64,000 nt of DNA from a virus, in IMG/VR virus record IMGVR_UViG_3300020020_000002, positions 1 to 64,000 of that record. One strand, 5' to 3'. Below are positions 2,362 to 62,284 of this stretch, piece by piece. Position numbers and translations under genes: made by a program. Each line of letters opens with the position of its first letter. Within the stretch, counting starts at the first letter, position 1. The notes beneath the pieces are model-generated. The model had not been told where the DNA came from. It ran no database searches and saw only the letters and a list, made by a program, of their open reading frames with translations.

Positions 2362-2386
2362 TCAACTGCGTTTAAAACGCAGTTGA
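2362..2386 (+). promoter_or_regulatory. 25-nt perfect palindrome, copy 1 (TCAACTGCGTTTAAAACGCAGTTGA + T6)
   Basis: Read directly; intergenic between the HNH-like gene stop (2400) and promoter cassette P1. Confidence 0.9.
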
Positions 2387-3883: not shown

Positions 3884-3942
3884 CGCCTGTCGTCTACCGC
3901 AACGGCTTGCCAGTGTCAAACCGCGCGACCGAGCGCGGTCTG
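3884..3942 (-). promoter_or_regulatory. promoter cassette P9 (leaderless-type) overlapping the fibre gene 3' end
   Basis: Minus strand: ACCGCGC-N6-GCGCGGT inverted repeat, TTGACA (3914-3919, overlaps fibre stop)-17 nt (GCAAGCCGTTGC)-TAGACG-7-ATG(3883). Confidence 0.5.
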
Positions 3943-12700: not shown

Positions 12701-15104
12701 GGTAGATGCCGGTGACCTCGGCGTTTTCCTTGTGGTTGAAATACGATCGTCCTCCGACCTCCCGCGGATCGATGCCAATCTTGCCGCCGAAAAACTCACC
12801 GATGCCGCGCTGGATCTTGTCGCGGATCCCTTCGGGAATGACGAGATCGGCCGTGCCCTTGGTCGAGAAAATGCGGCCCGCGGTTTCGGCGACGAACTCG
12901 TCGATCGCCTGCGCGTCGGTGAGCGGCCGCGCGCCGCTCTTTGTGAGTTCCTTGTTGTAGCCGTCGATGAACTGCTGGAATTCAGGCGTCGGCTTGCCGC
13001 TTTTGTCGGTGAGCTGCGCCTTGATCTTGCCCATTACGCCGTCGTAGAGCGGGCCTCCCTTGCCGCTGAACGCGCGCAGGATGTTTTGCGCGACGTGGCC
13101 ACCCATCTCGTGGCCTGCGACGTGGCCGAAGACACCTTTGCCCTCGGGCCCCATCATGCTCGGGTGCTCCGCGTTCACGTAGGCCTTGCCGTTATGCATC
13201 GCGAGGCCGCGATCGTTGCCTGCGGGCAGGCCGCGCTCGGCTTTGAAGGCGGCGTAATCGGCCGCGCTCAACGGCACGATCTCGCTCACGCCTTTTTGAC
13301 CCTGCGGGCCGGTCGTTTCCATGCCGCCCAGTGCGTCCGTCAATTCGTAGACCATGTTCTTTCCCGCCTCGGGCAGCCGTTGCACATAGCGTGCGCTGGC
13401 CTGACTCCACTTGTCGCCCCGCTGCGCCATCTCGGTGAAGCGCGCTTGGCCGTTCGCACGCATCGACGGCAGGATCGCCTTGGTGAACTGCGGCTTGAGC
13501 CCGCCGGTCAAGCTGCCCATCGCGCCGAACAGCGGTGCACCCTCGGAGAGCGCCGCAAAGTTACCCCAAAAGTTTTCTTTGTCGCCCGCCGCCATCGCGA
13601 GGTTGAGCGGTGCCGCACCGACTGGCGTCGCCAGCATGTCGATCACCGTGTTGCTGGCTCGCACCTTGGCGTTGGGGATCGCAGTCTTGGCGAATTTCGT
13701 GAGGGCTGGTGCGCCTGCGGTGGCCCGGGCTGCCTTGGCCGCCGCCTCGGTGGCTGGCGCGACCCACGTGCCGTTGGTCAGGGCTTCAAATCCCTGTTGG
13801 CGCAAAACCTTCGCTGCGCCGCCGATCTTCGCCAGCGCGCCCGCGGCGAGGATGCCCGCGCCGATCTTGCCCGCATTCTTCCAGTCGCCCTCGATGATCT
13901 TTTGCGCCGCGGCATAACCACCGCCCGCGGCCGCACCGCCGAGCACCAGCCTGCCGCCTTTCGTTGCGAGCACTTCCCCGGTGCCACCCAAGGCTGTGGC
14001 GAGCGCGCCACCCACGCGGCGCATGCCGGGCAGGCCGGGCGTTTTGATGAGCATGAGGTTCGTCGGATCCATGATCGCGCCGATCGCGGCTGTCGCACCC
14101 GGGTCGACCGGTTCCGCGCCGATGCGTTTCAGGTTTTCGGGCCCAAGGATTTCACTCACCGGCACGCCTTCGTTTCTCCACTTCATGTAGTCGGCCACCG
14201 CGCCTTCATCGAGCGGGATGCCGCTCGCGAGTTTGATGTCTTTGCGCGTCGCGCCGACGGTCTGGCCGAACTTGTTTTTCAGCGCCTCGCGTTTCGCGTC
14301 TTCGGGTTCCAATTGCGCGACCATTACGTTGACCTCGGCGCTTTCCTTGGGCGTCAGCGGCTTGCCTGCGCGCGCTTTCATGAGCGCGGTCGTGAGCATC
14401 GGGCCGTAGATCTGCGCGTAGGGCACCTTCTTGCCCGCCTGCAGGATCTCGCCGCGTCCTTTCAAATAATCGGGCAGCACGCCGACCGCTGCGTCGATGC
14501 GCGCCGGATCGGCCGCGAATTTCTTTTGCGCATAGTCGAGCGGCAGTTGTTCGCCCCAATCGAGCAACCCGCGAGCGAGCCGCTCGCCGCTTTGGCCCGC
14601 CATTTGCACGCCGATCACGTTCTCGGCCGTGGTGGTCGCTGCGTTCGGGTCGCTGAGAATTGCTTGGCCCGCTTGCTTGAACAAGCGCGGCACGCTCATT
14701 GCCATGCCGCGGCCCCAGCTCCCGAATCCGCTGGCCACGTCACCAAACGTCATCTTGTGGCTGTAGTGCGGGTAGGTCTTGCCCTCGGGATCCTTGAAGC
14801 CGCGCGCCGCCCGCGCTTCGTGGACCTTGAACGCGAGATCCTGACTGGCCGGATCCTCATACTTCGCGGCGAACGTGATCTCGTCAAAATTCGGATCGTC
14901 GATCGTCTTTTGCAGGTCGTCCGGTTTTTCGCCGAGCAGATCCTCCAGACTTTGCGACGGTTTCGCCGGGGGTGGGAATTTTTCCTGCGCCGCGGCGGTG
15001 CCTTTGCCGCCTGTGGCGAGGTCGAGTTCAGCGATGTCGGTGATCGGCTCCTGTGGTAGGTCGGCCGCTAGATCATCGTCGAGCAAAGAGGAAAGTTGAG
15101 GCAT
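6798..15104 (-). CDS. giant multidomain virion/ejection (polyvalent-type) protein; 2768 codons as one open frame, 3' limit and internal continuity uncertain
   Basis: Track ORF. Gly/Ala-rich glycine-zipper-like stretch (about 13690-13980), Pro-rich linker (about 12400-12700), GNAT-type motif [15 protein letters not shown], second acetyltransferase-like module ([18 protein letters not shown]...YAPEGW), conserved C-terminal module (RWYDGAN...ALSPQKDW..N; KVRNFYNNI). Sits where T7-like phages place internal core proteins, between internal proteins and the fibre. Confidence 0.7.
6890..7081 (-). CDS. small acidic protein (63 aa) overlapping the 3' end of the giant ORF in another frame
   Basis: C-terminal part of track ORF 6890..7825 from ATG 7079-7081 ([63 protein letters not shown]); natural composition and better G/C third positions than the overlapping giant-ORF frame. 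Confidence 0.5.
   Translation of the reverse strand: MPKLDNNLSEEESLLQRGLEPAMVENLKASQKAMAERGEVMTLEEIYVMETGLIPGQDRDEED
8807..8998 (-). CDS. alternative-frame ORF inside the giant gene (63 aa; [38 protein letters not shown]...)
   Basis: Track ORF 8807..9040 from ATG 8996-8998. Over its first 40 codons I count 31/40 G/C third positions versus 13/40 for the giant-ORF frame over the same DNA. Confidence 0.35.
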   Translation of the reverse strand: MSKPQKPAKKHSPEEIKAKMSDNALALGIELTQEELKQVTASTARSQKLSQVTRSVPPSKSKT

Positions 15105-18172: not shown

Positions 18173-18705
18173 GCGAGTGCTGGTTTGAGTTGAGTTTTGG
18201 AGGCGAGCAGAACCGCCTCGGTGGTGTTGCGATCGATCAGGCGATCTTCGAGGGTCGCCGTGTCACGACAGTCGTCAGGGTTGGCGTGGATGGTCTGCCA
18301 ACGGCAGGTTTGAAGGACGACGAACATCTTGAGCACGCCCGCACCACTGACGAAGACCTGCGGCGCGTGCAGGGTGGCCGGTTTGCCATTTTCGTCGATG
18401 TAGCGAATCGAGCCGGTGAGCATGATGTTGAAATGCTCGGTTTTGTGCCGCTTGCCGAGGATGAAGGTGCCGAAGGGCATCTCGATCTCGCGCAGGTAGA
18501 CGCCCGGTGCCCAGCGTTCGATCACCGGGCACTTGGCCTGCGGCTCCTTGACGAGTTGAGCGCCCAACGCGAGGGACGCGCCAACCTCGGCGTGTTCGAG
18601 CAACAGCTTGTCGATCGATTCCCGCTGCTTGCGGGTCAATTTTCTCAACTGCGTTTTAAACGCAGTTGATTTTTGTGGTGCCGTAAGTGGTTTGTTGCTG
18701 CTCAT
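18169..18705 (-). CDS. hypothetical protein (178 aa), possible small beta-barrel fold
   Basis: Track ORF 18169..18855 trimmed to ATG 18703-18705 (MSSNKPLTAPQK...), ATGA overlap with the tail-collar gene stop; a palindrome copy lies inside codons 13-20, so a start downstream of it cannot be excluded. Confidence 0.5.
   Translation of the reverse strand: MSSNKPLTAPQKSTAFKTQLRKLTRKQRESIDKLLLEHAEVGASLALGAQLVKEPQAKCPVIERWAPGVYLREIEMPFGTFILGKRHKTEHFNIMLTGSIRYIDENGKPATLHAPQVFVSGAGVLKMFVVLQTCRWQTIHANPDDCRDTATLEDRLIDRNTTEAVLLASKTQLKPALA
18645..18669 (+). promoter_or_regulatory. 25-nt perfect palindrome, copy 2
   Basis: Read directly; TTTCTCAACTGCGTTTTAAACGCAGTTGATTTTT; lies 33 nt below the tail-collar stop, inside the 5' end of ORF 18169..18705. 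Confidence 0.9.
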
Positions 18706-28691: not shown

Positions 28692-30080
28692 TTAGAGTGA
28701 ACCGGTGGCGCTCCAGTCACCGAAGTCGGTGATCGGAACGAGGCCGAAGTCGGTCTGCTTGCGAGCGTAGGCCACGGCGCAAACCGCGTGCGGACGCTCG
28801 GGCTTGTAAGCCCGGCTGAACTGGTAGTAGTGGCGACCAAAGTCCTGCCAGACGTTGCGGTCGTTGTCCGCAAGGTTGCGCCACATCAGCTCGCCGCTGA
28901 TGCCCTGCGCCGGGAACTTGAAGCTGCCCTCGCCCGTGTAGGTTTCGGGTGCCAGCTTGCGGAAGGATCCCTTGCCGATCACGAGCAGCACCTCGTATTT
29001 GGCGTGCACCCATGCGGCGCTCGGCCGACTGCCGACCGAGTTGTCGACCTCGACCGCGATCTCGGGCTCGATGTAGACCGGCTGGCCGCTCGCGGTGACC
29101 GTGTTGAAGCGCAGCGGCTGTGGATCCACACCAAACGCCATGCCGCGGTAGGGGCCTTCCCACAGATAGCGGATGAGTGTGTTCTTGCCGAGGTCGTAGC
29201 TGCCCGCGGCAATGTAGCGGTGATCGTCGCGCACCTCGGCGTCGTCACGCAGGAAGTCGACGGCTTCGTGGCTCGCGATGACCTTCATCACCGGCTCGCC
29301 CTGCTTGCCTTCCCACGGTTCGACGAGCAGCACCTCGCGCATCATTCTGCATAGATGCTGCATAAGTTTGATCGTCGGCATCGCGTTCGGCAGGCCGATG
29401 TTCGGGAACGGGGTGTCGATCGACTGCATGTTGCCCTCGAACATGTCGGAAAACGACTTGCCTGCCTGCACGACCATTTTGCAACCCGAGCGGTCGACGA
29501 GCGTGATGCGCACGTCGGCGTTGTTGAGCTGCACGAGCTGGCCGCGGAGTGATTGCTCAGCCGCGGAGTAGGCGGTCTTGAAGGCCGACCACATGCCCTT
29601 GATGCAGACCAGCGGCCCCATGCCGCGATTGGTCGCCAGCTCATAGCTGTATTCGGTGCTGCCGACCTCGGCGCTGGGACCGACGGTGCCGCAGACATTG
29701 CGATCGAGGGTGAACGTGGGCCGCACGAGCGACTGGTTGAGCACGGCGCGCTCCTGCACGACCACGCGCTGCACGTCGCTGATGCCTGCCTCCAACGTGC
29801 CGCCCTCAAGGACGTCGACGTAGGGGCTCTTCTGCACGACGGCGCGGATGACTTGGCCGCGGATGCGGTTCTCGTCCTTGGCCGCGAAGTCGCTGACGTC
29901 GGCCGGGTCGATCGAATACGCGCCGCGGTTGCTGTCGCCGCTGCCGTAGTAGGTGTAACCGTAGGCCGGTGTTGGTGTGCCGATATAGCACGGAGCCGCG
30001 AGCAGGATTGCCGCGGCCAGAATGGTTTTTTGTTTCAAGATTGGATGCTTTGTAACGCGGATCCGATGCCGGGGATCCAT
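28692..30080 (-). CDS. major capsid protein candidate (462 aa; N-terminus and start uncertain)
   Basis: Position after portal/scaffold; own sigma70-like promoter with ~100-nt leader; two strong hairpins right after the stop; size fits HK97-type capsids. No family recognised by eye. N-terminus KQKTILAAAILLAAPC looks like a signal peptide; in-frame TTG at 30036-30038 is an alternative start. Confidence 0.5.
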   Translation of the reverse strand: MDPRHRIRVTKHPILKQKTILAAAILLAAPCYIGTPTPAYGYTYYGSGDSNRGAYSIDPADVSDFAAKDENRIRGQVIRAVVQKSPYVDVLEGGTLEAGISDVQRVVVQERAVLNQSLVRPTFTLDRNVCGTVGPSAEVGSTEYSYELATNRGMGPLVCIKGMWSAFKTAYSAAEQSLRGQLVQLNNADVRITLVDRSGCKMVVQAGKSFSDMFEGNMQSIDTPFPNIGLPNAMPTIKLMQHLCRMMREVLLVEPWEGKQGEPVMKVIASHEAVDFLRDDAEVRDDHRYIAAGSYDLGKNTLIRYLWEGPYRGMAFGVDPQPLRFNTVTASGQPVYIEPEIAVEVDNSVGSRPSAAWVHAKYEVLLVIGKGSFRKLAPETYTGEGSFKFPAQGISGELMWRNLADNDRNVWQDFGRHYYQFSRAYKPERPHAVCAVAYARKQTDFGLVPITDFGDWSATGSL

Positions 30081-30180
30081 TGCGGGGCGCGACTGCGCCT
30101 TTTACAAAGTCCGTTGTTGTGGTGGCGACTCACCCACCTTGCTCGATCGTTTGAGTAGAGTCGAGCGCGCTACTGATCCC

Positions 30181-30210
30181 GGTATAGAAGCGTTTCCTAG
30201 GAGTGGTCAA
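30181..30210 (-). promoter_or_regulatory. sigma70-like promoter for the capsid gene
   Basis: Minus strand TTGACC (30205-30210)-18 nt-TATACC (30181-30186), directly after terminator-oriented palindrome copy 3; about 100-nt leader to ATG 30080. Confidence 0.55.
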
Positions 30211-30222
30211 CGACCAAAAAAA

Positions 30223-30247
30223 TCAACTGCGTTTTAAACGCAGTTGA
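30223..30247 (-). terminator. 25-nt perfect palindrome, copy 3 (only copy with the T-run on the coding strand)
   Basis: Minus strand reads GAAATTCTCAACTGCGTTTAAAACGCAGTTGATTTTTTTGG, i.e. hairpin + T7, immediately upstream of the capsid promoter. Confidence 0.7.
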
Positions 30248-30359
30248 GAATTTCCGCTCGACGTCGCAGGATTTACGAATAACAGTGTCCTCATTAACGC
30301 CCGGCAGCGCGACTATGCTGCCGCGCTAGGTGCAGTCTATAGGCGCACCGCAGAGAGTT

Positions 30360-30398
30360 GAACGGCCCGGGTTTTTGCAAGCCCGGGCCGTTCTTTTT
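30360..30398 (+). terminator. canonical intrinsic terminator oriented on the plus strand (no plus-strand gene evident)
   Basis: GAACGGCCCGGG-10 nt-CCCGGGCCGTTC followed by TTTTT on the plus strand. Confidence 0.6.
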
Positions 30399-30491
30399 CC
30401 ACCGCTGGCAACCGAGATTAGGTGCCCACCCCGAGCGGATCACGGCGGGAGCACCGACTAGGCACATCGCTCCCCGCCCGAGGTGGACATT

Positions 30492-30626
30492 TCATTTGCG
30501 CTTTCGATGCGTGCCTTTGATCGTCCCTGCGTTTTGGCTCGCATGGAAGACCTGTTTCCCTTTTTTCGCGCCGTAAGTTTTCGTCATCGCTTTCTGGATC
30601 TTTTTGCCTTTGGGCGTGAGTGGCAT
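30492..30626 (-). CDS. small basic protein (44 aa)
   Basis: Track ORF trimmed to ATG 30624-30626 (MPLTPKGKKIQKAMTKTYGAKKGKQVFHASQNAGTIKGTHRKRK); strong SD GAGGAGGTG 7 nt upstream. Confidence 0.65.
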   Translation of the reverse strand: MPLTPKGKKIQKAMTKTYGAKKGKQVFHASQNAGTIKGTHRKRK

Positions 30627-30642: not shown

Positions 30643-30993
30643 CTATTGTCCGTCGAGGAAACCACCGCTGCCGATGATCCGTTTGACCTCGTAGCGGTTG
30701 ACTGTGTCGAACACCGGGATCTTCTCACCGCTTTCGATGAGGTGGGCTAGTTCAATGAAACCGATCGCCAGTTCTTCGCGCTCGCCGTGGCAGGTCACAC
30801 GCGCCAGCACGATGCCCTCGCCTGCGATCGGTTTACCGTCGGCCCCGCCTTTGTGCATGGCGGTCGTTTCGAGCATGTAGGGCTGCTTGCGGCATTTCAC
30901 GCAGTAGAGGTGCCGCTGGCGCAGGTCCGGCCGCAGGCTCTTGAGATCGCTCGTGAAGTCTGCGGGCTGATCTTCGTGGATATCTTCGGGCAT
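30643..30993 (-). CDS. hypothetical protein (116 aa)
   Basis: Track ORF 30643..31815 trimmed to ATG 30991-30993 (MPEDIHEDQPADFTSDLKSLRPDLRQRHLYCVKCRKQ...); the long upstream extension is R/P/S-rich shadow. Confidence 0.6.
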   Translation of the reverse strand: MPEDIHEDQPADFTSDLKSLRPDLRQRHLYCVKCRKQPYMLETTAMHKGGADGKPIAGEGIVLARVTCHGEREELAIGFIELAHLIESGEKIPVFDTVNRYEVKRIIGSGGFLDGQ

Positions 30994-30995
30994 GA

Positions 30996-31367
30996 CTAAC
31001 CTCGGCGTGGATCTTGCGCTTCCTTTGGTGCCATTACTTCGGCGCACTTGCTGCAGTAGCGATCGAGCGGCACGTCGTGCGTGCACAGCGGCACCGGGTC
31101 CAGTTGGGTCACGGGCGGCACGTTGGCGAATCGCTTTTGCGCGGCCTTGATCCGCTCCTCCTGTGCTTGGATCTCCTCGACCGTGCGCAGCGCCATCCAC
31201 TTGCCGTGTGGATCCAGCGCGTGCTCGCGACCGCAGTCCTTGCAGGCGTAGTAGCGCACGCGGCCGTCGCGGATCGCTTTCTCGCGGTAGCGCAGCGCGG
31301 TGATGATGACGCCCATCAGGAAGCTGATGCAGGCGATGGTCAGTGGGTGGTCGAGGTATGGGTTCAT
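30996..31367 (-). CDS. membrane-anchored Cys-rich protein (123 aa)
   Basis: Trimmed to ATG 31365-31367 (MNPYLDHPLTIACISFLMGVIITAL...CKDCG...CSKC); ATGA overlap with upstream stop. Confidence 0.6.
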   Translation of the reverse strand: MNPYLDHPLTIACISFLMGVIITALRYREKAIRDGRVRYYACKDCGREHALDPHGKWMALRTVEEIQAQEERIKAAQKRFANVPPVTQLDPVPLCTHDVPLDRYCSKCAEVMAPKEAQDPRRG

Positions 31368-32935
31368 GGGATGTAGATCGAGAGCATGCGCGGATTGATG
31401 TAGAGGGCGGCGGTCGCCATATTGCTCGCTGGGTGGATGAGTGCAACGGCTTTTGACATGATAAGCACCTCGACGAAACAATTGATCGCGTCCTCGAATG
31501 TTTGGGGGTTTTCCACGTGGAAATCGTGCGCGCGATTCTCCGACCGGCGGGTCTTCGTGTAGGTCGCCGCGTTGAACTCCTTGGCGAAGTGCTGGAGCGT
31601 CTCCTCGTCGCTCGCGGCCACGAAGACGCGGGGCACGACGCCGAGGTCGCGCTTAGCCACGACCAGTGCGGCGCGGATCGCACCCTCGTATTGCTCGATC
31701 GTCTGCAGGTTGCCGGTGATCTGCTCGTTGGCGTGGTTGGCGCTCGCGCGGATCTGCACCGCGATGTAGGGCTTGTTGCCGAAGGCTGCGTCGGTGAAGG
31801 CCTCGGCCTCGGCAACCAGCTCGTCGCGCACCTGCCAGCCTAGCCAGTGCTGGTGGTAGATTTGTCGCCACGGGTCGTTCTTGTTCAAGTAGTGATCGGC
31901 CACGTATTGCGCGGTGAGGTGCCAGTCGGGATACATCGTGAGCAGCTCGAAGTTGTCGCGCGTGAAATCGAGCTGGCCCTTGGCTGGGTTGTTCGCGAAG
32001 AGCACGTCCCACAGGTTGCTCTTGTCCTCGGTGGCGTAGAGGTGATCGCCGGACCAGTTGACCAGCACGTTGTCGAAGATCTCGCAGCAGGTGGCCACGT
32101 TGTTGACGAGGCTGAAGAGCCCGCCTTCGTGGGGTTGAATGACGCAGTTGCGCATGACGTGTTTCTCTTTGTGTTTGGAGTAGACGCGGTGGTAGCCGCG
32201 GCTGGTCTTGGCGTTGGCGGCGAGCGTGCCGTCCTCGTGCATCTCGCGCACGAAGCGCACCGCGTTGGGCCCTTTGGCCCCGTGGAAGAGCGCCGGGATC
32301 GTGCCGTTCTTGCGCACTGCCTGCAGGTCGTCGCGGGTGTATTTGGTGATGTGGTAGTGCTGCACGATCGCGTCGACGTCCTCGCCGATCGAGAGCATCA
32401 GATGCCCGTGGAAGTGATCCCAGCCGCGGCGCAGGTTGGTCCCGTTGAGCTGCGGGTAGGTGCGCAGCAGGCCGATGCGGAAGATCGCGTTGCCGTTCAA
32501 GTGATCGACCGGCATGTTGTGCCCGTGGCCGACGGCCAGCTTGCCCCGGGCCTCGGCGTCCTTCCAGCAGGCCTTGAGCACGTCGATCCAGTCGCTGCGC
32601 AGCGGCACGCAGTCCGGCTCGAAGGTCAGCACACCGGTCTGGCTGCGATCCTTTTTGAAGGCCATCGAGATCCGCATCATCGTCTCGGCCCACAGGTCGT
32701 TCGGGCCCTCGGGCCAGCCCACGCCTGCGCGCTCGCCCTTGACGGACATCACCGTGCCGAATTTGGTCGAAGCTGCCCGGCACATTTCGCTGATGTGGAC
32801 CGGGTCGGTGTCGCGACGGTGTGCGACGCAGAAGACGTCGTCCTTGCGCATCGTGGGCTCGATGTCGCAGATCAGGCGCGTGAGTTCGACAGCTTGCGCG
32901 CTATCGGTTGGGCAGCATTGCAGGGCGAGGATCAT
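31364..32935 (-). CDS. two-domain glycosyltransferase-like protein (523 aa)
   Basis: Trimmed to ATG 32933-32935 (MILALQCCPTD...). C-terminal half (KPYIAVQIRASANH...VFVAASDEE...EVLIMSKAVALIHPASNMATAA) resembles fucosyltransferase/NodZ-type GT-B motifs; N-terminal half unassigned; ATGA overlap. Confidence 0.45.
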   Translation of the reverse strand: MILALQCCPTDSAQAVELTRLICDIEPTMRKDDVFCVAHRRDTDPVHISEMCRAASTKFGTVMSVKGERAGVGWPEGPNDLWAETMMRISMAFKKDRSQTGVLTFEPDCVPLRSDWIDVLKACWKDAEARGKLAVGHGHNMPVDHLNGNAIFRIGLLRTYPQLNGTNLRRGWDHFHGHLMLSIGEDVDAIVQHYHITKYTRDDLQAVRKNGTIPALFHGAKGPNAVRFVREMHEDGTLAANAKTSRGYHRVYSKHKEKHVMRNCVIQPHEGGLFSLVNNVATCCEIFDNVLVNWSGDHLYATEDKSNLWDVLFANNPAKGQLDFTRDNFELLTMYPDWHLTAQYVADHYLNKNDPWRQIYHQHWLGWQVRDELVAEAEAFTDAAFGNKPYIAVQIRASANHANEQITGNLQTIEQYEGAIRAALVVAKRDLGVVPRVFVAASDEETLQHFAKEFNAATYTKTRRSENRAHDFHVENPQTFEDAINCFVEVLIMSKAVALIHPASNMATAALYINPRMLSIYIP

Positions 32936-33150
32936 TTTTTCTTTTTGGGTTTGTGGTTTTGGTGGATCTTCATCAGGCCGCAGATGATCTCGATGCCAGC
33001 CTCGGAGAAGCACGCCCTGACGGCTGCTGCGCGCCGGAACTCTTCGTCTAACCACGGCGTCGACGCGTTGGCAATGTGCACATTGTAGGCACGGTCCAAC
33101 GCATCGATCGCCGTTTCACAGTCTGCGGGCAGGATGATCGGCCCGCTCAC
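32932..33150 (-). CDS. hypothetical protein (72 aa)
   Basis: Track ORF MSGPIILPADCETAIDALDRAYNV... Confidence 0.6.
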   Translation of the reverse strand: MSGPIILPADCETAIDALDRAYNVHIANASTPWLDEEFRRAAAVRACFSEAGIEIICGLMKIHQNHKPKKKK

Positions 33151-33153
33151 GGG

Positions 33154-33606
33154 TTAGAGCTTGAGGTTGTCGGCCGTCGGCTCGATGCGCGGCGAGTCGG
33201 GGTTGTAACTCTCGGGGTATGGGTTCGCGCCGATGCCTGTCTCGTCCTTGATGCGCTTGAGGTCCATACCTAACCACATGACGCCTTCCTGCAGCTTCAT
33301 GATGGCGGCGCTGCGCTCGGGTGTGTTCACCATCGCGCGCAAGGTTTGGATGATTTGATCGATGTTGACCCGCGCTTGCTTGATGGCGCGAATCTCGTTC
33401 TCGATCGGGTTGGTTTCGGGGCGTGGTAGCTCGTTGGATACTTCGGTTTCTTCGCTCATGGTGTTGGTTGGTTGATTGGCGCACTCTTCGGATTGGAGGA
33501 ACGTGCCGGGTCTTTGGTCGTAGTCGGACGAGCCGCACGCGTAGACGGTTCGTGGGCTATTATGATCGATCTCTGCGGCTCCGCAGCTTGGGCAGGTGTC
33601 GGGCAT
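33154..33606 (-). CDS. Zn-ribbon + helical-hairpin protein (150 aa); C-terminal half resembles the N4 gp49/Sf6 gp66 (Acb2-like) family
   Basis: N-terminal CPSCG...YACG; C-terminal RSAAIMKLQEGVMWLGMDLKRI...NPYPESYNPDSPRIEPTADNLKL recalls the T.LEEA.MW motif of that family (from memory, unverified); internal ATG at 33457-33459 is an alternative start. Confidence 0.4.
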   Translation of the reverse strand: MPDTCPSCGAAEIDHNSPRTVYACGSSDYDQRPGTFLQSEECANQPTNTMSEETEVSNELPRPETNPIENEIRAIKQARVNIDQIIQTLRAMVNTPERSAAIMKLQEGVMWLGMDLKRIKDETGIGANPYPESYNPDSPRIEPTADNLKL

Positions 33607-33608
33607 GG

Positions 33609-33785
33609 CTAGTATTGCTCGCCTTTGTAGGTGCCGTTGTTGATCTCCCGGGCGTATTTGATCGCGGTCGCAGCGCGCGACATCTGGCGCTCGGCCTCGC
33701 CGTAGTCAGGCAGCTCTTTCTGCATCGCGATCGCGGCGGCTTCGAGACAGATCGCCGCCTCCCGTTCGTATTGCTTGGCCTTCAT
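33609..33785 (-). CDS. small helical protein (58 aa)
   Basis: Last 58 codons of track ORF 33609..34511 from ATG 33783-33785 (MKAKQYEREAAICLEAAAIAMQKELPDYGEAERQ...); the rest of that ORF is R/P-rich; TAATG junction. Confidence 0.55.
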   Translation of the reverse strand: MKAKQYEREAAICLEAAAIAMQKELPDYGEAERQMSRAATAIKYAREINNGTYKGEQY

Positions 33786-34969
33786 TAGACCGGCTCGGGG
33801 AAGTAGGCGAAGTTGCCGAGGTGCGCGACCCAGCAGCCGAGGTCGAGATAGCTTTGGTGGCCTGCTTCCTTGGCTAGCTTGCAGAAGGCTGCGTCCTCGC
33901 CGCCTCGGCCGACCTCGTGGCCGAAGAAATTCCACGGTGCCTCGGGATTCTCGGGCGCGAGATCCGGCCGGGAGCGTTTGATGTCGTCGTAGACGCTGCG
34001 GTGCACGAGCAGGCACCCGGTGGCGCACCAGTCGACCTCCAAGAGCTTGTCCTTCGGCCCGCGCGATCGGATCGAGCTGATCGCGTCCTTCTCGTCGAGC
34101 GATGGCTGCGGCCGCAGGTCGGCCGGTGAGCAGATCGCACCCTTCACCCGGCGCTGCTGGTAGACTGCGCCGACGATCTTGCGGCCGTGCTTCATCAGGC
34201 GCTCCAGCGTCTTCTGCCGCAGGAAGTCGGGCGAGATCCGGTTCTGCGGGATCGCGAGGCGCTTCAGGTCGTAGAAGAAGGCCGGGTCGCCCCAGCTCGG
34301 CACGATATCGCCGTCGACCCACCACGACCACTCGGCCTCGCTCTTGAGGAAGTGATGCGCGCACAGGTTGCGCGCCTTCTGCACCAGCGTGTCGGTTTCT
34401 TGGAAGTAGCCAAGCCACGGCTGGCTTCGCAGTTGCGCCATGTGGGCGAAGTGCACCCACGGCAGGATCGGTAGCGCGAGCGGGGTGAGCATCATCGCCT
34501 TGCGCGACCACGAGCCGTTGAGCACCGCCTCCAGCACCGCGGCGAGGTTGTCGCTGCCGTTGAGCCGGACCTTGGGCCGCAGCTTGTCGATCAGCTCGGT
34601 GAGATCGCTGATCTTGTCAGCGTGCATCGGGATCGGCTCGTCCTTCGGTGCCGGTGGGAACTTCTCCTCCGGTGGGTGAAGGCCCGCTTGCGTCTCGCCT
34701 TCCGCTTCGAGGTCGAAGTCGTCGGCGTTAGGATTGAACTTGCTCTCGGTTTGCTCGGGTGTGTTGGGCTCGGGTGTGTCGGGCAACGTGTCGAGCACTG
34801 ACTGGGCCAGCTCGTAATTGACGATGACCTGCGCGGCGTCGACGCCGGGCTCGATCTTTTTCAGCCACGCCGCCGTCGGCTTGGCGCGCATGTTGAAGAA
34901 TACTTTCGCAGCGTCGGGATCGGTCATCACCCGGTCGCTGATATCTTGATAGAGGTCTTTGAGTGGCAT
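33785..34969 (-). CDS. glycosyltransferase-like protein (394 aa)
   Basis: Trimmed to ATG 34967-34969 (MPLKDLYQDISDRV...). C-terminal half has WWVDGDIV (DxD-like) and GEDAAFCKLAKEAGHQSYLD, as in GT-A type transferases. Confidence 0.45.
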   Translation of the reverse strand: MPLKDLYQDISDRVMTDPDAAKVFFNMRAKPTAAWLKKIEPGVDAAQVIVNYELAQSVLDTLPDTPEPNTPEQTESKFNPNADDFDLEAEGETQAGLHPPEEKFPPAPKDEPIPMHADKISDLTELIDKLRPKVRLNGSDNLAAVLEAVLNGSWSRKAMMLTPLALPILPWVHFAHMAQLRSQPWLGYFQETDTLVQKARNLCAHHFLKSEAEWSWWVDGDIVPSWGDPAFFYDLKRLAIPQNRISPDFLRQKTLERLMKHGRKIVGAVYQQRRVKGAICSPADLRPQPSLDEKDAISSIRSRGPKDKLLEVDWCATGCLLVHRSVYDDIKRSRPDLAPENPEAPWNFFGHEVGRGGEDAAFCKLAKEAGHQSYLDLGCWVAHLGNFAYFPEPV

Positions 34970-34974
34970 GGGAT

Positions 34975-35253
34975 TTACTTGGTTAGTTTTTCGTTGGTGA
35001 TGACACGCACAGCGTCGCCCATGCCTTCCGGCCATGGGCCAGCTTCGAGCAGGTTCACGTAGGGCGAGCTGCGCGTGATGGTTTTGATGAGGTCGCCTTT
35101 CAGTGGGTTGGCGACCACGATGTCCCACACAGTCATGCGCCGAGCAGGAGCCGTCACCTTGGCCAGCTCGACTAGCTGCGGCGCTAGTTTGGCCGCAACC
35201 GGTGCGCCGCAGATGACGGCAGCTAGCTTGAAGATGAAGCCCCGGCGATTCAT
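34975..35253 (-). CDS. 92-aa protein with twin-arginine-like signal; paralog of the capsid N-terminal segment
   Basis: Trimmed to ATG 35251-35253 (MNRRGFIFKLAAVICGAPVAAKLA...); ATGA overlap with scaffold stop; KGDLIKTITRSSPYVNLLEAGPWPEGMGDAVRVITNEK aligns with capsid RGQVIRAVVQKSPYVDVLEGGTLEAGISDVQRVVVQER. Confidence 0.6.
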   Translation of the reverse strand: MNRRGFIFKLAAVICGAPVAAKLAPQLVELAKVTAPARRMTVWDIVVANPLKGDLIKTITRSSPYVNLLEAGPWPEGMGDAVRVITNEKLTK

Positions 35254-36749
35254 GCGCGTCGGCCGTATTTGTTTTCGAGGTAGGCGTCGGCTGCTTCCTC
35301 GGCCGTCACGTTGAGGTTGCTGTTGGGGATCTTGGTGCCGTCGACCGGCGCGCTCTCTTCGCGGGTCGGGTCGCTGATTCGCTGCACGCCGCGCGCGGTG
35401 TCCTCCAGCTCGGCGATGCGCTGCTTGGCTTGGTCGAGTTCGGCCTGCATCGAGGCGACCTGCCGGTGGGCGTGGTCGACCGCGTGTGCCTTGGCGATGT
35501 ATTCCATCGCGGCCGGGTCGCGACTCCACACTGCTTGGATCCCCTTGCGGATCTCGGGCACGATCACGTCGCGCAGGTGCGTGTTGTGCTTCTCTGCTTC
35601 GAGCTTGGCGGCCTCGTCCATGTCGGCGGTGATCGACTTGTAGTGGCCCCACTCGTAGCCCGGCTGATCGAAGAGGCTGATAAGCTTCTTGTCGGACTCA
35701 CCGGCCCAGCTCTTGCGCTCCTCCTCCTCGCGCTGCTGCTGGCCTTCCCAGTATTTGCCCGCCTTCTCTTGGATCTCGGCCAGCTTCTGCTCGTGGCCCT
35801 CGACCACCGCCTTGCGGTTGCGGAACATGTCCTTGACCCGGTCGAGCAAGAGCTGGTCGCCGGTCTTCGCGATCGCGTTCAGGATCCCGTTTATCATGTT
35901 CCGACCTTGCGGGCTGTCGAAGCCGATCGCCTTGAGCCTTGCGGCCTGATCCGCGGGCATCATGAGGTCTTCGTCGGTCGTCAGCACCTCGATGATCTTG
36001 TCCTCGGCCGAGTCGAGCGTCTTTTTGAACTCCTCGGCGATCTTCGGGTCACTCTGCGCCTCGAAAGTCGCCTTGAACTCACGCAGTTCGGCGAGTTCGG
36101 CCTCGACCTGCGGGTCGCTCTTCGGTCCTTTCTCCAATTCGGCGATCTTGGCCGACAATTCCTTGTTCCGGCCGATCGCGGCGCGGGTGATCTCCTTGAT
36201 CTCCTTGAAACCATTGAGCGTTTTTTCGCTCGCGTTGGGTTTGGGCTGGATCGCGTCGAGTTTTTTGAGCGCCGCCTCGGGATCGAAGGGTGCCGGGCCG
36301 CTGGGACCGCTCGCCCCGGCCGGTTTTGGCACTACCCCGCTTGGACCAGTCGCTCCAGAAGGGGCAAATGTGCCGTCTGCGCGCCTCGCCCTGCCCGTTT
36401 CGTCGACTTTTGGGCCCGTGGGGCCAGTCGGGGCGGTTTCAGGCGGTTTTTGCGGTTTTTGCGTCTCGCCCTTGGCCGGATCCGGCGCGGCCGGGATCTG
36501 ATCGGGCTGGCGATCGGGCGGCTGAGCCTGTTGGTGGTCGCCTCCCTCGCCGTATTTCTTGTCGAAGTCGCCCCAGTCGGGCTTTTGGTCGCCCGTGACC
36601 TCGCCGATGTCGGGGAAGTTGGTCACCGGTTGCACTGCAGGCGGATCGACGGCCGGTGGCGCTTCGCCCGGGCCAAAGGCCGGTTGCGGGCGTCCGATGT
36701 GGCAGGGCGGGATGAGTGAGCTTGCGCTAGTCGTGAGGATATTTTGCAT
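35250..36749 (-). CDS. scaffolding-like protein (499 aa)
   Basis: Track ORF; Pro/Gly-rich N-terminal third then long charged helical region (AELEKGPKSDPQVEAELAELREFKATFEAQ...); lies between portal and capsid. Confidence 0.45.
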   Translation of the reverse strand: MQNILTTSASSLIPPCHIGRPQPAFGPGEAPPAVDPPAVQPVTNFPDIGEVTGDQKPDWGDFDKKYGEGGDHQQAQPPDRQPDQIPAAPDPAKGETQKPQKPPETAPTGPTGPKVDETGRARRADGTFAPSGATGPSGVVPKPAGASGPSGPAPFDPEAALKKLDAIQPKPNASEKTLNGFKEIKEITRAAIGRNKELSAKIAELEKGPKSDPQVEAELAELREFKATFEAQSDPKIAEEFKKTLDSAEDKIIEVLTTDEDLMMPADQAARLKAIGFDSPQGRNMINGILNAIAKTGDQLLLDRVKDMFRNRKAVVEGHEQKLAEIQEKAGKYWEGQQQREEEERKSWAGESDKKLISLFDQPGYEWGHYKSITADMDEAAKLEAEKHNTHLRDVIVPEIRKGIQAVWSRDPAAMEYIAKAHAVDHAHRQVASMQAELDQAKQRIAELEDTARGVQRISDPTREESAPVDGTKIPNSNLNVTAEEAADAYLENKYGRRA

Positions 36750-36876
36750 GGCTTTTTTGGTATGTGCGGCGGCGGCCGCGGCGGCGCAGAAATGGGCGTG
36801 CGATCGCCCAAAGGGACATCACGATGCCGCCGAAGAGCGCGGCGATCGTCGCGACAATGGTGTAGTCGGCTCTCAT
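36727..36876 (-). CDS. small membrane protein (49 aa)
   Basis: ATG 36874-36876 in ATGA overlap with upstream stop; MRADYTIVATIAALFGGIVMSLWAIARPFLRRRGRRR; overlaps the scaffold start by 23 nt. Confidence 0.4.
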   Translation of the reverse strand: MRADYTIVATIAALFGGIVMSLWAIARPFLRRRGRRRTYQKSHAKYPHD

Positions 36877-37148
36877 TCGTTCTCTCTCCCGATGAAGGGT
36901 GAGTTTTCGGTGATGGTCGTGGCTCCGCTGGCGAGCTGGATGACTGCCTCGATCATGTGCTCCGCGCCGCGCACCTCGCTGCCGGACATGGCTCGTGCTT
37001 CGAGCGTCTCGGTGGTGGTGAAGCGCGGCCGTCGGGCGCGCATCGCGGGCAGGAACTTCGGGCTTTTGTCGAGATACGCGCGGAGAGCTTGCGCGTCGTT
37101 CTCCGTCCACACGATGTGAACGGGTTCGGGTCGAGTTTGTTCAGGCAT
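36873..37148 (-). CDS. hypothetical protein (91 aa)
   Basis: Track ORF MPEQTRPEPVHIVWTENDAQALRAYLDK...; preceded by palindrome copy 4 and a looser promoter cassette. Confidence 0.6.
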   Translation of the reverse strand: MPEQTRPEPVHIVWTENDAQALRAYLDKSPKFLPAMRARRPRFTTTETLEARAMSGSEVRGAEHMIEAVIQLASGATTITENSPFIGRENE

Positions 37149-37204: not shown

Positions 37205-37229
37205 TCAACTGCGTTTTAAACGCAGTTGA
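37205..37229 (+). promoter_or_regulatory. 25-nt perfect palindrome, copy 4
   Basis: Read directly; starts 6 nt after the portal stop codon (37235-37237), followed by a promoter-like module. Confidence 0.9.
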
Positions 37230-37234
37230 GTTTT

Positions 37235-39709
37235 TTACACCTTCGTCGCGGTCTGTCCCAAGTCGATCTTCGCCTCTTCGAGCCCTTGCGCTTTGCTGCC
37301 TTCCGCGGCCTTGGCGAGGATGCGCATGTTCTCCTGCTGGATCTGCAGCGCGTCCTTGTTCACTTGGTGGCCGAGCTTCGCTTCCTCGATCGACAGCTCG
37401 CGATCTTTTTGGTCGGCCTTCTTCGCTTCGAGGCCGAGGTAGCCTGCTTCGGTTTGCTGCTCGGGTGGCAGGCCGGGGGATCCCGGGGCAACCGGCTGCG
37501 CACCGGCACCCGCACCGGGCTGGCCCCCGGCTGCCATTTGGGCTTGAGCATCGGCCTGCGCTTTCTGCAGCGCCTGCTCGGCCTTGGTCACAATTTGGAA
37601 CCATCCGCGGATCACGTCCTCTTCCTGCTTCTTCTGCTCGGGCAGGAGCATCGGATCCATCTGGATGTGCATGTCGTAGTGCTGCAGGCAGAGCTTCGCG
37701 CCACCGATCAGCTCGGGCTGCGGGTTCTGCGCGATCGCCTGCACCATGCCGTCGAGGTTAGGTGCCAGTGCCTGCCGGTGGATCGCGTGGTTGTCGAATC
37801 CAACCACGGGCATCGGGTTGCCATCGAGCATCTCGGATAGCTCGATCGTCTGCTGGCGGATCGCGGCGTCGCGCACGTTGGTGTCCTCGTCGGGAATGAC
37901 CAGCTCGGTTGCCCGGGCCTCGCCGAGCACGATGCGCGCTTCCATCTGCGTCGCCTTGTTCTGATCGATGCGCGGGTTGATCTTGTTCGCGGCGATGAAT
38001 TGCAGCGTCGCTTGGTCCTTGGCTGCGCCCTCGTTCTCGTTGCTCGCGCCGGACGGCACCACGGCCAGCATGGCGATCTCCTCGATCGTCAGGCCGCTGT
38101 CCATCAGCTCGACCACCGCTTGCACTGCGGCTTCGTCGGCGATCGACGTCTCCATGATCGGCTCGACGCCCGGGGTTTTGCCGAAGGCTTTCTTGAGGAG
38201 TTTCCACGCCTGCTGGATCACGACCACGATCTTCGCGCTCATCTTGCGCTTTTTCTCCTCGTAGGCGCGCTTGCCCTCGCGCAGCACCAACGGGCTGAAC
38301 ATGCCGCGGACCATCATGTCGACTAGCTCTTTCGCTTGGTTAGTGAACCGGGTCAGCACGCCCTGCCTAACTGCGATGTCCCGCTCGGCTTTCTGCGCGG
38401 CCTCGATCTTCGTCTTGCTGCTGCCGCTTTGATCGACGTTGGGTGGAATGAACGCACCTGCGATCGATTCCGCGATGCCGACGAGCTTGTTGTCGAGGCC
38501 CTCGCTCGCTTCCCAGTTGATCTGAAAGTTTTCGACCAGCACGTCGGTGCCGGTGGGTGCGACCATGAACGGGTAGCGAAGCTGTAACTGCACCGCCGTC
38601 GGATCGTCACTCTTGAGCACGGGGAACCCGGCGAAGTTAATCTTGTCGGCCGTGAAGTTGCGGCCGCGCTCGATCGCCACATGCAGGTTGGTTAGGAGTC
38701 GGCCGAGGCCCTTGGATCCATAGAACTTTCGGTTGCCCGCCTGCATGGTGAAAAGCGTCATGCACTCAGGCATCGAGCCGTGCACGTTCTTCGCCTGCCG
38801 GACCTCGGTGCCGTCGTCCTCGCTCGTCGTCCAGAGATCGATCTCGCCTGTGTAGTCGCGCACCAGCACGTGAAAGCAGCGCACCTGCCGAGTTTGGTTC
38901 TCGGTCGCATAGCTGTAACCTAGTGGGCTCAGCTCGCGGATCGCGTCCTGCTCCTCCAGCGGCGTCTGCTCGGTGTTGTTGAACCCACCGGCCGTGTTGG
39001 CCGTCTTGATGCACCCGGCGTAGTTGTAGCCCGCGCGCTCGGCGATCATGCGATCGCGGAACAGGTCCATGAACTCGTGCATGAGGAAGGGCTGGCGGAA
39101 GGCGCAGACCTGCACCTTGCTCGCGTGCTGGCCGGTGCCCTCGGGCAGGAACACTTCGTCGTAGCGCCACATGCGCGGCCGCCAGTCTTCGCCCAGTTTC
39201 GTGGCGACCGCGTTCCCATGCGTGACGACCTCTTGGGCAAGGCCCGACAGGAAGTCTTTCCACTCGACCCATGCCCGAATGGTTTTGGTGCAAACCTCGT
39301 TGAACTTGCGGCTCTTCTTGACGCCTTCGGGGTGCCCGGGCGGAAGCGCCTTCTGGCAGAGGAGGTCGGCCACTTCGAGTGGCTCGGTGAGCTGGGGTTT
39401 CACCCGATCGATGATCGAGGCGAGGAAATTGGTGGAGAAATTGTTGCGCCAGCCTTGCCCGGTGCGCGTCAGATCTCGCGCGAAAAATGGTGGATCACCA
39501 TTGTAGGCCTTGCCGATGAACGCTGCCGTGCGCAGGCGTCCATCGATCGCGCGATCTCGCAAGCTCTTGGCGATGCCGTAGGCCTGCTTGCAGTTGTTGA
39601 TCGCTCTACTGGTCGGCTTGCCCGTTGCCGGACTTATGTTGGGCGGATTGAGCTGCTGATCTCCGGTTGGTTCCTTGTTGCTGTCCTGTGCTGGATAGAT
39701 CGCGCTCAT
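37235..39709 (-). CDS. portal protein candidate (824 aa)
   Basis: Size, position upstream of scaffold and capsid, central FYGSKGLGRLL region and long Gln/Ala/Glu-rich helical C-terminal tail as in podoviral connectors; no HMM run. Confidence 0.6.
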   Translation of the reverse strand: MSAIYPAQDSNKEPTGDQQLNPPNISPATGKPTSRAINNCKQAYGIAKSLRDRAIDGRLRTAAFIGKAYNGDPPFFARDLTRTGQGWRNNFSTNFLASIIDRVKPQLTEPLEVADLLCQKALPPGHPEGVKKSRKFNEVCTKTIRAWVEWKDFLSGLAQEVVTHGNAVATKLGEDWRPRMWRYDEVFLPEGTGQHASKVQVCAFRQPFLMHEFMDLFRDRMIAERAGYNYAGCIKTANTAGGFNNTEQTPLEEQDAIRELSPLGYSYATENQTRQVRCFHVLVRDYTGEIDLWTTSEDDGTEVRQAKNVHGSMPECMTLFTMQAGNRKFYGSKGLGRLLTNLHVAIERGRNFTADKINFAGFPVLKSDDPTAVQLQLRYPFMVAPTGTDVLVENFQINWEASEGLDNKLVGIAESIAGAFIPPNVDQSGSSKTKIEAAQKAERDIAVRQGVLTRFTNQAKELVDMMVRGMFSPLVLREGKRAYEEKKRKMSAKIVVVIQQAWKLLKKAFGKTPGVEPIMETSIADEAAVQAVVELMDSGLTIEEIAMLAVVPSGASNENEGAAKDQATLQFIAANKINPRIDQNKATQMEARIVLGEARATELVIPDEDTNVRDAAIRQQTIELSEMLDGNPMPVVGFDNHAIHRQALAPNLDGMVQAIAQNPQPELIGGAKLCLQHYDMHIQMDPMLLPEQKKQEEDVIRGWFQIVTKAEQALQKAQADAQAQMAAGGQPGAGAGAQPVAPGSPGLPPEQQTEAGYLGLEAKKADQKDRELSIEEAKLGHQVNKDALQIQQENMRILAKAAEGSKAQGLEEAKIDLGQTATKV

Positions 39710-44874: not shown

Positions 44875-44899
44875 TCAACTGCGTTTAAAACGCAGTTGA
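44875..44899 (+). promoter_or_regulatory. 25-nt perfect palindrome, copy 5
   Basis: Read directly; 17 nt upstream of ATG 44857. Confidence 0.9.
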
Positions 44900-52042: not shown

Positions 52043-52251
52043 TTGATGTGTTGCATCCATGCCTCTTGTTCGCCGCAAGCGAAGAGGAACTCTTTCAGAA
52101 CTTTGATCGCATCTTCACGCTGCATGCTGGACACGTAGCTAAGCTTTCCACCAGCGCCGAGCGGGGCCGTGAGCAGGATGAATGCGTGGTTGTCCGGCAG
52201 GTGTTGCTCGATCGCTTTGGCTGCATCTTTGAGGTAAGTTTTATCGGGCAT
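52039..52251 (-). CDS. hypothetical protein (70 aa)
   Basis: Trimmed to ATG 52249-52251 (MPDKTYLKDAAKAIEQHLPDNHAFILLTAPLGAGG...). Confidence 0.55.
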   Translation of the reverse strand: MPDKTYLKDAAKAIEQHLPDNHAFILLTAPLGAGGKLSYVSSMQREDAIKVLKEFLFACGEQEAWMQHIK

Positions 52252-62259: not shown

Positions 62260-62284
62260 TCAACTGCGTTTAAAACGCAGTTGA
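62260..62284 (+). promoter_or_regulatory. 25-nt perfect palindrome, copy 6
   Basis: Read directly; 18 nt upstream of the sliding-clamp ATG (62241). Confidence 0.9.

Follow-up and report, generated by a model that had tools for sequence, protein, structure and literature searches.

Why should a phage keep genes for sugar transfer among the genes that appear to build its head? The question is raised by the viral record IMGVR_UViG_3300020020_000002 of IMG/VR, of which positions 1 to 64,000, a stretch of 64,000 nucleotides referred to below as the window, were analyzed. Between a scaffold-like gene (35250-36749) and a capsid-like gene (28692-30080) lie two large genes, encoding protein B (394 aa, 33785-34969) and protein A (523 aa, 31364-32935), and the minus strand encodes all four. 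Predicted structures and conserved motifs, on which the transferase class of both proteins rests, make it very probable that A and B are active glycosyltransferases (GTs) that form a conserved cassette of the head module. Their acceptor may be a virion protein, with the capsid-like neighbour as first choice; this part of the reading comes from gene position only, and we give it an even chance.

Relatives of B were collected by scanning IMG/VR with a B alignment, which gave at least 385 sequences. The best 80 loci were kept for the analysis of synteny, and the proteins of the window were searched with phmmer against all open reading frames (ORFs) of these loci. The related contigs, reaching 57-74 kb, were drawn from IMG/VR and Logan. 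The alignments behind the AlphaFold2 (AF2) models comprised 40 homologues of B and, for A, 8 of the N-terminal and 12 of the C-terminal half. The models were compared by Foldseek with PDB structures and, for B, also with the viral proteins of BFVD.

The B model had a predicted local distance difference test (pLDDT) score of 86.5. Residues from about 150 to 394 formed a GT-A domain, of the single Rossmann-like alpha/beta/alpha kind that binds nucleotide sugars, preceded by a helical N-terminal domain and a disordered, acidic and Pro-rich linker that were found in close relatives only. Foldseek matched B to many GT-A structures with a probability of 1.0. The top PDB neighbours were the GT domain of human LH3 (E 1e-8), STIV A197 (1.6e-7) and Mimivirus R699 (3.5e-6), and polypeptide GalNAc-transferases (5e-4) and PBCV-1 A64R (5e-3) came further down. 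Uncultured tailed phages supplied the nearest BFVD proteins, which were also of the GT-A type (4e-16). Ardmore gp87 (3e-5), the Che8 transferase (5e-3), an SFV1 transferase and a Megavirus procollagen-lysine dioxygenase were more distant. The stretch WWVDGDIV of B contains D219-G-D221, a DxD motif that was invariant in 40 homologues, and D219/D221, R200/N201, TGCxLVHR and GEDxxF were at least 95% conserved in 80 diverse relatives. At the sequence level B matched phrog_1574, a family with no known function (4.8e-11). No Pfam or NCBIfam model scored above its cut-off (Anp1, family GT62, reached 13.5 bits vs 28.8), no PDB sequence matched, and no match to actinophage GTs was found by tblastn. We regard the assignment of B as a GT-A fold glycosyltransferase with a conserved DxD as a well-supported prediction. 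A preliminary description of the window, made from its letters and translated ORFs, had called B glycosyltransferase-like on sight of WWVDGDIV and GEDAAF; the fold agrees with that call, and both motifs belong to the positions conserved in at least 95% of the 80 relatives. B-like genes also occur in two named phages. In MW202496, an unrelated GenBank phage, a B-like 'putative glycosyltransferase' is encoded two genes after the annotated major capsid protein, and in Pelagibacter phage HTVC023P a B-like gene adjoins a GT1 gene among tail genes.

Protein A was modelled with a pLDDT of 85.8 as two domains, with residues 246-259 as a disordered linker between them. The N-terminal domain (A-N, residues 1-245, 32201-32935) matched the Skp1 alpha-galactosyltransferase (6mw5, 6.5e-7), glycogenin, LgtC, 3tzt, LARGE1 and COLGALT1. 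Its E106-P-D108, H145-x-N-G-N and H218-G-A-K221 were invariant or conserved, and the ExD/DxD and other motif residues were conserved in at least 95% of 44 A-N-like ORFs. E106-P-D108 and H218-G-A-K221 were likened to the DxD and HxxGxxKPW-like motifs of GT8, an equivalence that, like that of the A-C motifs to GT23, was judged from alignments by eye and not by superposition. In relatives A-N was a stand-alone gene or was fused to other GT domains, as in the A-N and GT9-like fusions P0002-P0007. The C-terminal domain (A-C, residues 260-523, 31367-32158), with pLDDT mostly above 85, matched FUT8 (2e-9) and NodZ (3siw, 8.5e-6) and thus has the GT-B-variant fold of such fucosyltransferases. Among 13 family members H269, G272, L273, S275, N278, R396, D443, E445 and S504-T508 were invariant or nearly so, and the family signature was HxxGLxSxxN, Arg396, D443/E445 and SNMAT. 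R396, D443/E445 and S504-T508 are candidates for the GDP-fucose-binding Arg of motif I (R365 in FUT8) and the acidic or Ser residues of motifs II and III. Homologues of A-C were stand-alone proteins of about 250 aa in 12 relatives, one of which gave a weak match to Pfam NodZ (E 0.0038). Protein A itself had no match in Pfam (E <= 0.1), PHROG, NCBIfam or the PDB sequences, and neither Pfam Glyco_transf_8 nor NodZ was detected. The earlier proposal of a two-domain transferase with a NodZ-type C-terminal half is therefore borne out at the level of structure and finds no counterpart in a Pfam or NCBIfam classification. We describe A as a predicted fusion in which a GT8-like GT-A domain precedes one of the FUT8/NodZ-like (GT23-type) kind, and consider this well supported. 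For both proteins the class rests on AF2 and Foldseek because the sequence libraries gave nothing above threshold; a structural match, the lack of which the preliminary description had named as one sign against its reading, was obtained for both A and B.

Around B, about 70 loci carried the same portal-like and capsid-like families. The order was always portal-like, scaffold-like, B-like, usually A-N-like, and capsid-like, on one strand, in loci so divergent that E-values of the capsid-like protein ran down to about 1e-18 for partial ORFs and B was about 25-39% identical. The portal-like family lay upstream of B in nearly all related loci. Every related locus had an ORF of 420-510 aa directly upstream of B and ending where B begins, and in about 60 loci the capsid-like gene followed B or A-N. 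The capsid-like protein was the most conserved of the module, and its family comprised 151 representative clusters at E <= 1e-3 in a HMMER search of 1.84 billion representatives. In many loci (for example L013, L024, L064 and L072) the two GT genes were the sole genes between the scaffold-like and capsid-like genes. The close relatives L001-L003 and L091 had the same layout with a longer interval, in which genes for SSB, ThyX, DUF2786, an FkbM methyltransferase, Acb3 (L002, 12996-13748) and Tad5 (L003, 11206-11796) were found. In L091 an A-N, a GT9-like and a further GT-A domain were combined in a 736-aa protein encoded directly before the capsid-like gene. The FUT8/NodZ-like domain was seen, among the loci examined, only in the window and in L002, where it was a separate gene adjacent to the A-N-like gene.

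The block had been described at first as inserted between the scaffold and capsid genes. That wording has to be given up, as B-like and A-N-like genes occupied the same place in about 70 distantly related contigs and the GC content at third codon positions (GC3) of the block genes (0.73-0.89) equalled that of the flanking backbone genes; a recent horizontal insertion was rejected on the same two grounds. Because of this shared position, B and A-N are best seen as ancestral core genes of the head module. The variable part was made up of the surrounding small genes and the fucosyltransferase-like domain, not of B and A-N, and the interval from the scaffold-like to the capsid-like gene also takes in anti-defence genes, SSB and ThyX. 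The lineage is a phage clade not represented in the GenBank phages searched: none of their 50,697 records was similar to the window at the DNA level. A host search in GTDB genomes returned only five weak, unrelated fragments of metagenome-assembled genomes, and the literature searched yielded nothing specific on GT genes placed between those for scaffold and capsid.

What kind of glycan might such a cassette make? In the relatives, the stretch that follows B and ends at the capsid-like gene was scanned ORF by ORF with Pfam and NCBIfam, and the loci carrying each family were counted by phmmer. A GDP-mannose 4,6-dehydratase (Gmd) was identified above cut-off (TIGR01472, 436-485 bits) and counted in 8 loci. 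For the short-chain dehydrogenase/reductase (SDR) adjoining it, which was counted in 16 loci, GDP-L-fucose synthase (Fcl; NF047922) was by far the best model, with 392 bits, below the strict equivalog cut-off. Class-I S-adenosylmethionine-dependent methyltransferases were present in 13 loci and FkbM methyltransferases in 9, and several unassigned families of 200-250 aa in 17-34 loci. In L092 a hexapeptide acetyltransferase and a CmcI/Methyltransf_24 enzyme stood beside an A-N/GT9-like fusion. By profile-profile comparison parts of the x202 and x196 families looked A-N-like, and comparison of the x250 and x249 families with A-N, B and A-C was uninformative. A profile match between GTlike251 and A-N was set aside, since a multi-domain protein in the alignment had probably produced it. 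The Gmd and Fcl-like genes were not in loci that carry the A-C domain.

As judged from these sequences, the gene content of the relatives reads as a cassette for a decorated oligosaccharide containing fucose or another 6-deoxyhexose, which fits the FUT8/NodZ-like domain. The suggestion that several transferases assemble a multi-sugar glycan thus gains strength from the Gmd, Fcl-like, methyltransferase, acetyltransferase and additional GT genes of the related cassettes. Since the window has no Gmd or Fcl of its own, its phage would need GDP-fucose from the host.

A third transferase (2759-3883, minus strand) lies far from the block. The preliminary description had assigned it to GT4 (a GT-B family) and had placed it directly after a collagen-like fibre gene, and both statements hold: it matched Pfam Glycos_transf_1 (PF00534, 1.2e-17, 64.4 bits vs a cut-off of 26.4), Glyco_trans_1_4 (PF13692, 7.7e-18, 65.6 bits vs 27) and phrog_3408, annotated 'glycosyltransferase' (1.3e-41), and it starts 32 nt downstream of the fibre gene (3916-6801, minus strand). 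The plus-strand frame contains stops. A weak match to 'GT4 in conflict systems' (1.6e-4) was below cut-off. Homologues of this GT4 lay upstream of the portal-like gene in L016, L025 and L039. The fibre protein (961 aa; Pfam Collagen, 5.9e-22) consists of long GPT/GAT/GXT repeats and a Gly-rich C-terminal part. In the collagen-like region of BclA of Bacillus anthracis, Thr residues are glycosylated. By analogy, and speculatively, the GT4 may modify the GXT repeats of the fibre. Between the fibre gene and the tail genes a gene at 6798-15104 (minus strand) encodes a protein of 2768 aa with a weak GNAT acetyltransferase domain, a PBECR5 nuclease domain (2.5e-19) and DUF7178 (3.4e-24); this is possibly an internal protein of the virion that is ejected and that bears modules resembling toxins or enzymes.

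The block reads on the minus strand throughout, and its genes are packed so closely that stop and start codons overlap. Its ORFs were found where they had been reported; the count of seven is less firm and becomes seven to nine, depending on two small ORFs at 33609-33785 and 30492-30626. Upstream of the block, the portal-like gene (824 aa, 37235-39709, also on the minus strand), named from size and position, is the first gene of the conserved module and is followed by a small ORF of 91 aa (36873-37148) and by the scaffold-like gene (499 aa), whose label is positional. In the scaffold-like protein, an N-terminal half rich in Pro, Gly and Thr, which contains short GXT/GXS triplets, is followed by a charged C-terminal half of helical character. 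These collagen-like triplets were also present, in greater number, in the L001 protein (7792-9330) and were absent from 66 other scaffold-like ORFs.

The next gene, g1 (92 aa, 34975-35253), has a homologue in L001, where it is conserved, and is absent from most of the clade. Its N-terminus (MNRRGFIFKLAAV...) is Tat-signal-like. Residues 49-89 of g1 aligned with residues 71-111 of the capsid-like protein (37% identity, BLASTP E 4e-9), which makes g1 a likely partial paralogue of the capsid-like N-terminal region. The stop codon of B is overlapped by a possible ORF of 58 aa (33609-33785, MKAKQYERE...), which is known from the ORF listing and translation and is uncertain. Gene g3 (150 aa, 33154-33606) has an N-terminal CxxC zinc-ribbon-like motif and a weak match to the Acb2/Tad1 hairpin domain (PF24729, E 8e-4, 20 bits, below the cut-off of 27). 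Gene g4 (72 aa, 32932-33150) has no assigned function; phmmer matched it in L001, L002 and L003, and in close relatives it lies directly upstream of A-N-like genes. After A comes g6 (123 aa, 30996-31367), for which a membrane-anchored, Cys-rich protein had been proposed. We found one transmembrane (TM)-like segment at residues 7-25 (Kyte-Doolittle hydropathy, KD19, 1.95), then a Cys-rich, zinc-ribbon-like region with CxxC pairs and weak zinc-ribbon Pfam matches, all in keeping with that proposal; a g6 homologue was present in L001. Gene g7 (116 aa, 30643-30993) is likewise Cys-rich (CxxC...C-H), and its L001 homologue (130 aa, E 7e-23) lies directly upstream of the capsid-like gene. The last ORF of the block encodes 44 aa, is Lys-rich (MPLTPKGKKIQKAMTKTYGAKKGK...) and occupies 30492-30626; its status as a gene is uncertain. 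It had the only strong ribosome-binding site of the region (GGAGG) and a low GC content (50%), and lies just upstream of the non-coding spacer.

This spacer, about 410 bp long (about 30081-30491), precedes the capsid-like gene and contains a GC-rich 15-bp hairpin (30360-30393) and one copy of a perfect 23-bp palindrome, CAACTGCGTTTWAAACGCAGTTG. Six exact copies of the palindrome were found in the window (2363-2385, 18646-18668, 30224-30246, 37206-37228, 44876-44898 and 62261-62283) vs 0 expected, all of them intergenic. Each copy, read on the gene strand, has an A-run (AAAAAT or AAAACT) before it and usually AGA after it; a T-run follows the copy at 30224 only. The palindromes sit upstream of gene blocks, including the unit formed by the 91-aa ORF, the scaffold-like gene and the GT genes, and the capsid-like gene. 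The palindrome could serve as a regulatory site specific to the phage, as an operator associated with a promoter, as a hairpin for RNA processing or as a terminator.

The capsid-like protein of the window has 462 aa, and its identity is a tentative one. Its N-terminus and that of the scaffold-like protein, both in the window and in L001 (at 7792 and 17281), share a hydrophobic stretch followed by C-[HYI]-I-G-[RT]-P-[QT]-P-A-[FY]-G. Most other members of the capsid family start about 55 residues later and are without this motif, which may be a processing, targeting or lipobox-like signal. Elsewhere in the window, on the minus strand, are a homologue of the DNA polymerase III beta-clamp (61114-62241, Pfam 1.1e-6) and a protein of 462 aa with a TSCPD domain (52241-53629, 3.3e-8).

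How does the cassette compare with known virus-encoded systems? The closest setting is that of the mycobacteriophages. According to Freeman et al. 2023, as cited in PMC11600133 and PMC11256854, capsids and tail tubes are glycosylated by GTs encoded beside an O-methyltransferase, with Che8, Corndog and its cluster O, and Myrna as examples. Both systems are phage-encoded sets of several soluble cytoplasmic GTs that decorate capsid or tail-tube subunits, as shown there and as proposed here, and in both several GT genes lie in or beside structural genes, the structural labels here being deduced. Cluster O has its O-methyltransferase, and here methyltransferases occur in relatives. There was, however, no detectable sequence relationship; the Che8 GT (5e-3) and Ardmore gp87 (3e-5) were generic GT-A neighbours of B. 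The mycobacteriophage GTs are sporadic, whereas the present cassette is ancestral to the whole clade and has its place between scaffold-like and capsid-like genes. A FUT8/NodZ-like domain and, in relatives, the genes of a GDP-fucose pathway also set it apart from the mycobacteriophage sets, and it is known from its genes alone.

Among eukaryotic viruses, PBCV-1 encodes GTs together with GMD and GMER, and its major capsid protein Vp54 carries a fucose-containing, methylated glycan. PBCV-1 A64R and Q98454 were among the structural neighbours of B, and the Gmd and Fcl-like genes of the related cassettes recall the viral GMD and GMER. PBCV-1 is, however, a eukaryotic giant virus with a double-jelly-roll capsid and scattered genes, and the similarity to B is of a generic GT-A kind (5e-3 to 1e-6).

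The enzyme families tell a similar story of shared folds and distant sequences. The alpha-1,6-fucosyltransferases FUT8 and NodZ (GT23), the best structures for A-C, appear from the alignment to share with it a Gly-rich N-terminal loop, an Arg after a beta-strand and an S/T motif near the C-terminus, but A-C has only about 260 residues and no significant match to Pfam NodZ. The GT8 enzymes (glycogenin, LgtC, Skp1 alpha-galactosyltransferase and GlyE), several of which act on proteins or protein-linked glycans, have the same GT-A fold as A-N and, judged by eye, a similar succession of an acidic-x-D motif and a later H-G-x-K; A-N differs in having no Pfam GT8 match and a Glu as the first acidic residue (ExD). 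LH3/PLOD3, COLGALT1, Mimivirus R699/L230-type proteins and STIV A197 were the top structural neighbours of B and were also near A-N. They are protein-directed GT-A transferases, and the phage encodes collagen-like repeats, but identity was only 12-15%, no lysyl hydroxylase was found, and the collagen repeats of the phage have almost no Lys in Y positions. Collagen-specific glycosylation of the scaffold-like protein was rejected as a general role of the cassette, since the triplets of that protein are confined to the window and L001. Virus-encoded glycosylation machinery tied to structural genes is thus known already; what is found here is a clade-wide cassette, with a GDP-fucose pathway in relatives.

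Folds, residues of catalytic type, gene order, sugar-pathway neighbours and the want of TM segments are what the sequences and models show; from them we infer the activity of the enzymes, their donor sugars, their order of action and their acceptor as follows. The cassette would be expressed late, together with the scaffold-like gene, and its soluble enzymes would use cytoplasmic nucleotide sugars. B would put the first sugar on a protein acceptor, the GT8-like domain of A would lengthen the chain, and the FUT8/NodZ-like domain would add a terminal deoxyhexose, probably fucose from host GDP-fucose. The variable enzymes in relatives would make the glycan differ between phages. A protein acceptor is suggested, circumstantially, by the best structural neighbours of B and A-N, which act on proteins or glycoproteins, by the placing of the B-like genes in MW202496 and HTVC023P, and by the examples of the mycobacteriophages and, as a functional analogue, PBCV-1. 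A cytoplasmic protein substrate is favoured indirectly by the position beside the capsid-like gene, by transferases (A, B and the GT4) that have no TM segment, and by annotated neighbours that include no gene of flippase or polymerase type.

Several observations weigh against glycosylation of a head protein. Position is the sole link of the GTs to the capsid, and between the block and the capsid-like gene there is a spacer rich in hairpins. The labels capsid, scaffold and portal are themselves positional and not confirmed by homology: they come from size, order, the conservation of the capsid-like protein and downstream matches to the tail-fibre and virion families phrog_4176 and phrog_3287. 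The portal-like protein had no match in Pfam, PHROG (E 0.1), PDB sequences or, by tblastn, the 50,697 GenBank phage records; the capsid-like protein with 34 diverse relatives had none in Pfam, in PHROG (E 0.1) or in profile searches of PDB sequences, nor in the GenBank phages by tblastn, even with two distant family members as queries; and the scaffold-like protein matched no Pfam or PHROG family. Neither A nor B reaches a curated hidden Markov model threshold, and no Gmd or Fcl gene is in the window. GT8, GT9 and GT4 are classic families of lipopolysaccharide (LPS) core synthesis. The block region also holds cargo unrelated to glycans, namely SSB, ThyX, Acb3 and Tad5 in relatives and the weak Acb2/Tad1-like match here, so that position in this region gives no guarantee of a head function.

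These points lead to other possible targets. The GTs might remodel a glycan of the host envelope (LPS core or O-antigen, capsule or exopolysaccharide) late in infection and block superinfection or adsorption to debris, in which case the head position would be incidental. The GT8-like domains, the GT9-like partners of A-N in P0002-P0007 and the GT4 are of the usual LPS-core families, Gmd, Fcl, methyl- and acetyltransferases are typical of O-antigen loci, and a membrane-anchored protein, g6, is encoded in the block. We nevertheless consider this unlikely: A, B and the GT4 are without TM segments, the annotated related cassettes have no genes for a flippase, a polymerase, GtrA/B-type proteins or an undecaprenyl-linked initiating transferase, and conservation beside the capsid-like gene in about 70 contigs is hard to explain when host conversion is usually the work of a mobile moron of temperate phages. 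The same conservation bears on the idea that the block is an accessory or anti-defence hot spot whose GTs act on a host defence component or signalling molecule. Acb3 in L002, Tad5 in L003 and SSB and ThyX in related islands speak for it, as do the Acb2/Tad1 hairpin match of g3 and the 'conflict systems' match of the GT4, both weak and below cut-off. Such genes are, however, sporadic, whereas B and A-N are near-universal and often alone in the interval, and sugar pathways of several enzymes, with methyl and acetyl groups added, speak for a complex glycan rather than for a single change in a small molecule, which leaves this explanation improbable.

Phage DNA glycosyltransferases are well known, the alpha- and beta-glucosyltransferases of T4 among them, and with this precedent the enzymes could glycosylate hypermodified bases of the phage DNA at replication or packaging. 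A site beside packaging and head genes would suit such a role, and ThyX and SSB genes lie near B in L002 and L003. But the window proteins scanned included no hydroxymethylase-type thymidylate synthase or hypermodification gene, and the nearest structures are protein- or glycan-directed GT-A enzymes for B and A-N and FUT8/NodZ for A-C, not GT-B DNA glucosyltransferases; we hold DNA as the target to be very improbable. It is still harder to believe that B, A or both have no catalytic activity and serve in the head as structural or assembly proteins that keep a transferase fold. Conservation within a morphogenesis module would be expected of such proteins, and in this subclade B has an additional N-terminal domain and a disordered linker, but motifs of the metal- and nucleotide-sugar-binding type are at least 95% conserved in very divergent members, which argues for selection on catalysis. 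If the target were the host envelope or DNA, the conserved placement in the head module would need an explanation of its own.

To our knowledge, virion glycosylation in tailed phages has been shown by experiment in a few actinophages only and is regarded as an oddity. If it acts on a head protein, the cassette described here would supply new, very divergent GT-A and fucosyltransferase-like families, some of them in fusions of two or three domains. Tentatively, and with more doubt than confidence, we suggest that glycosylation of head proteins is an ancestral, near-obligatory trait of a large, global phage clade, and that the variable genes form a phage 'serotype locus' comparable to O-antigen or flagellin islands. 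Such a locus might, on the same doubtful footing, diversify the virion glycan in response to pressures such as host defences that sense capsids, grazers or binding that leads to no infection. If glycosylation of the head is correct, virion glycosylation would be a conserved and ancient feature of a whole environmental phage lineage, with a built-in variable region that predicts glycan diversity, and the clade would offer a testable system for what phage surface glycans are for.

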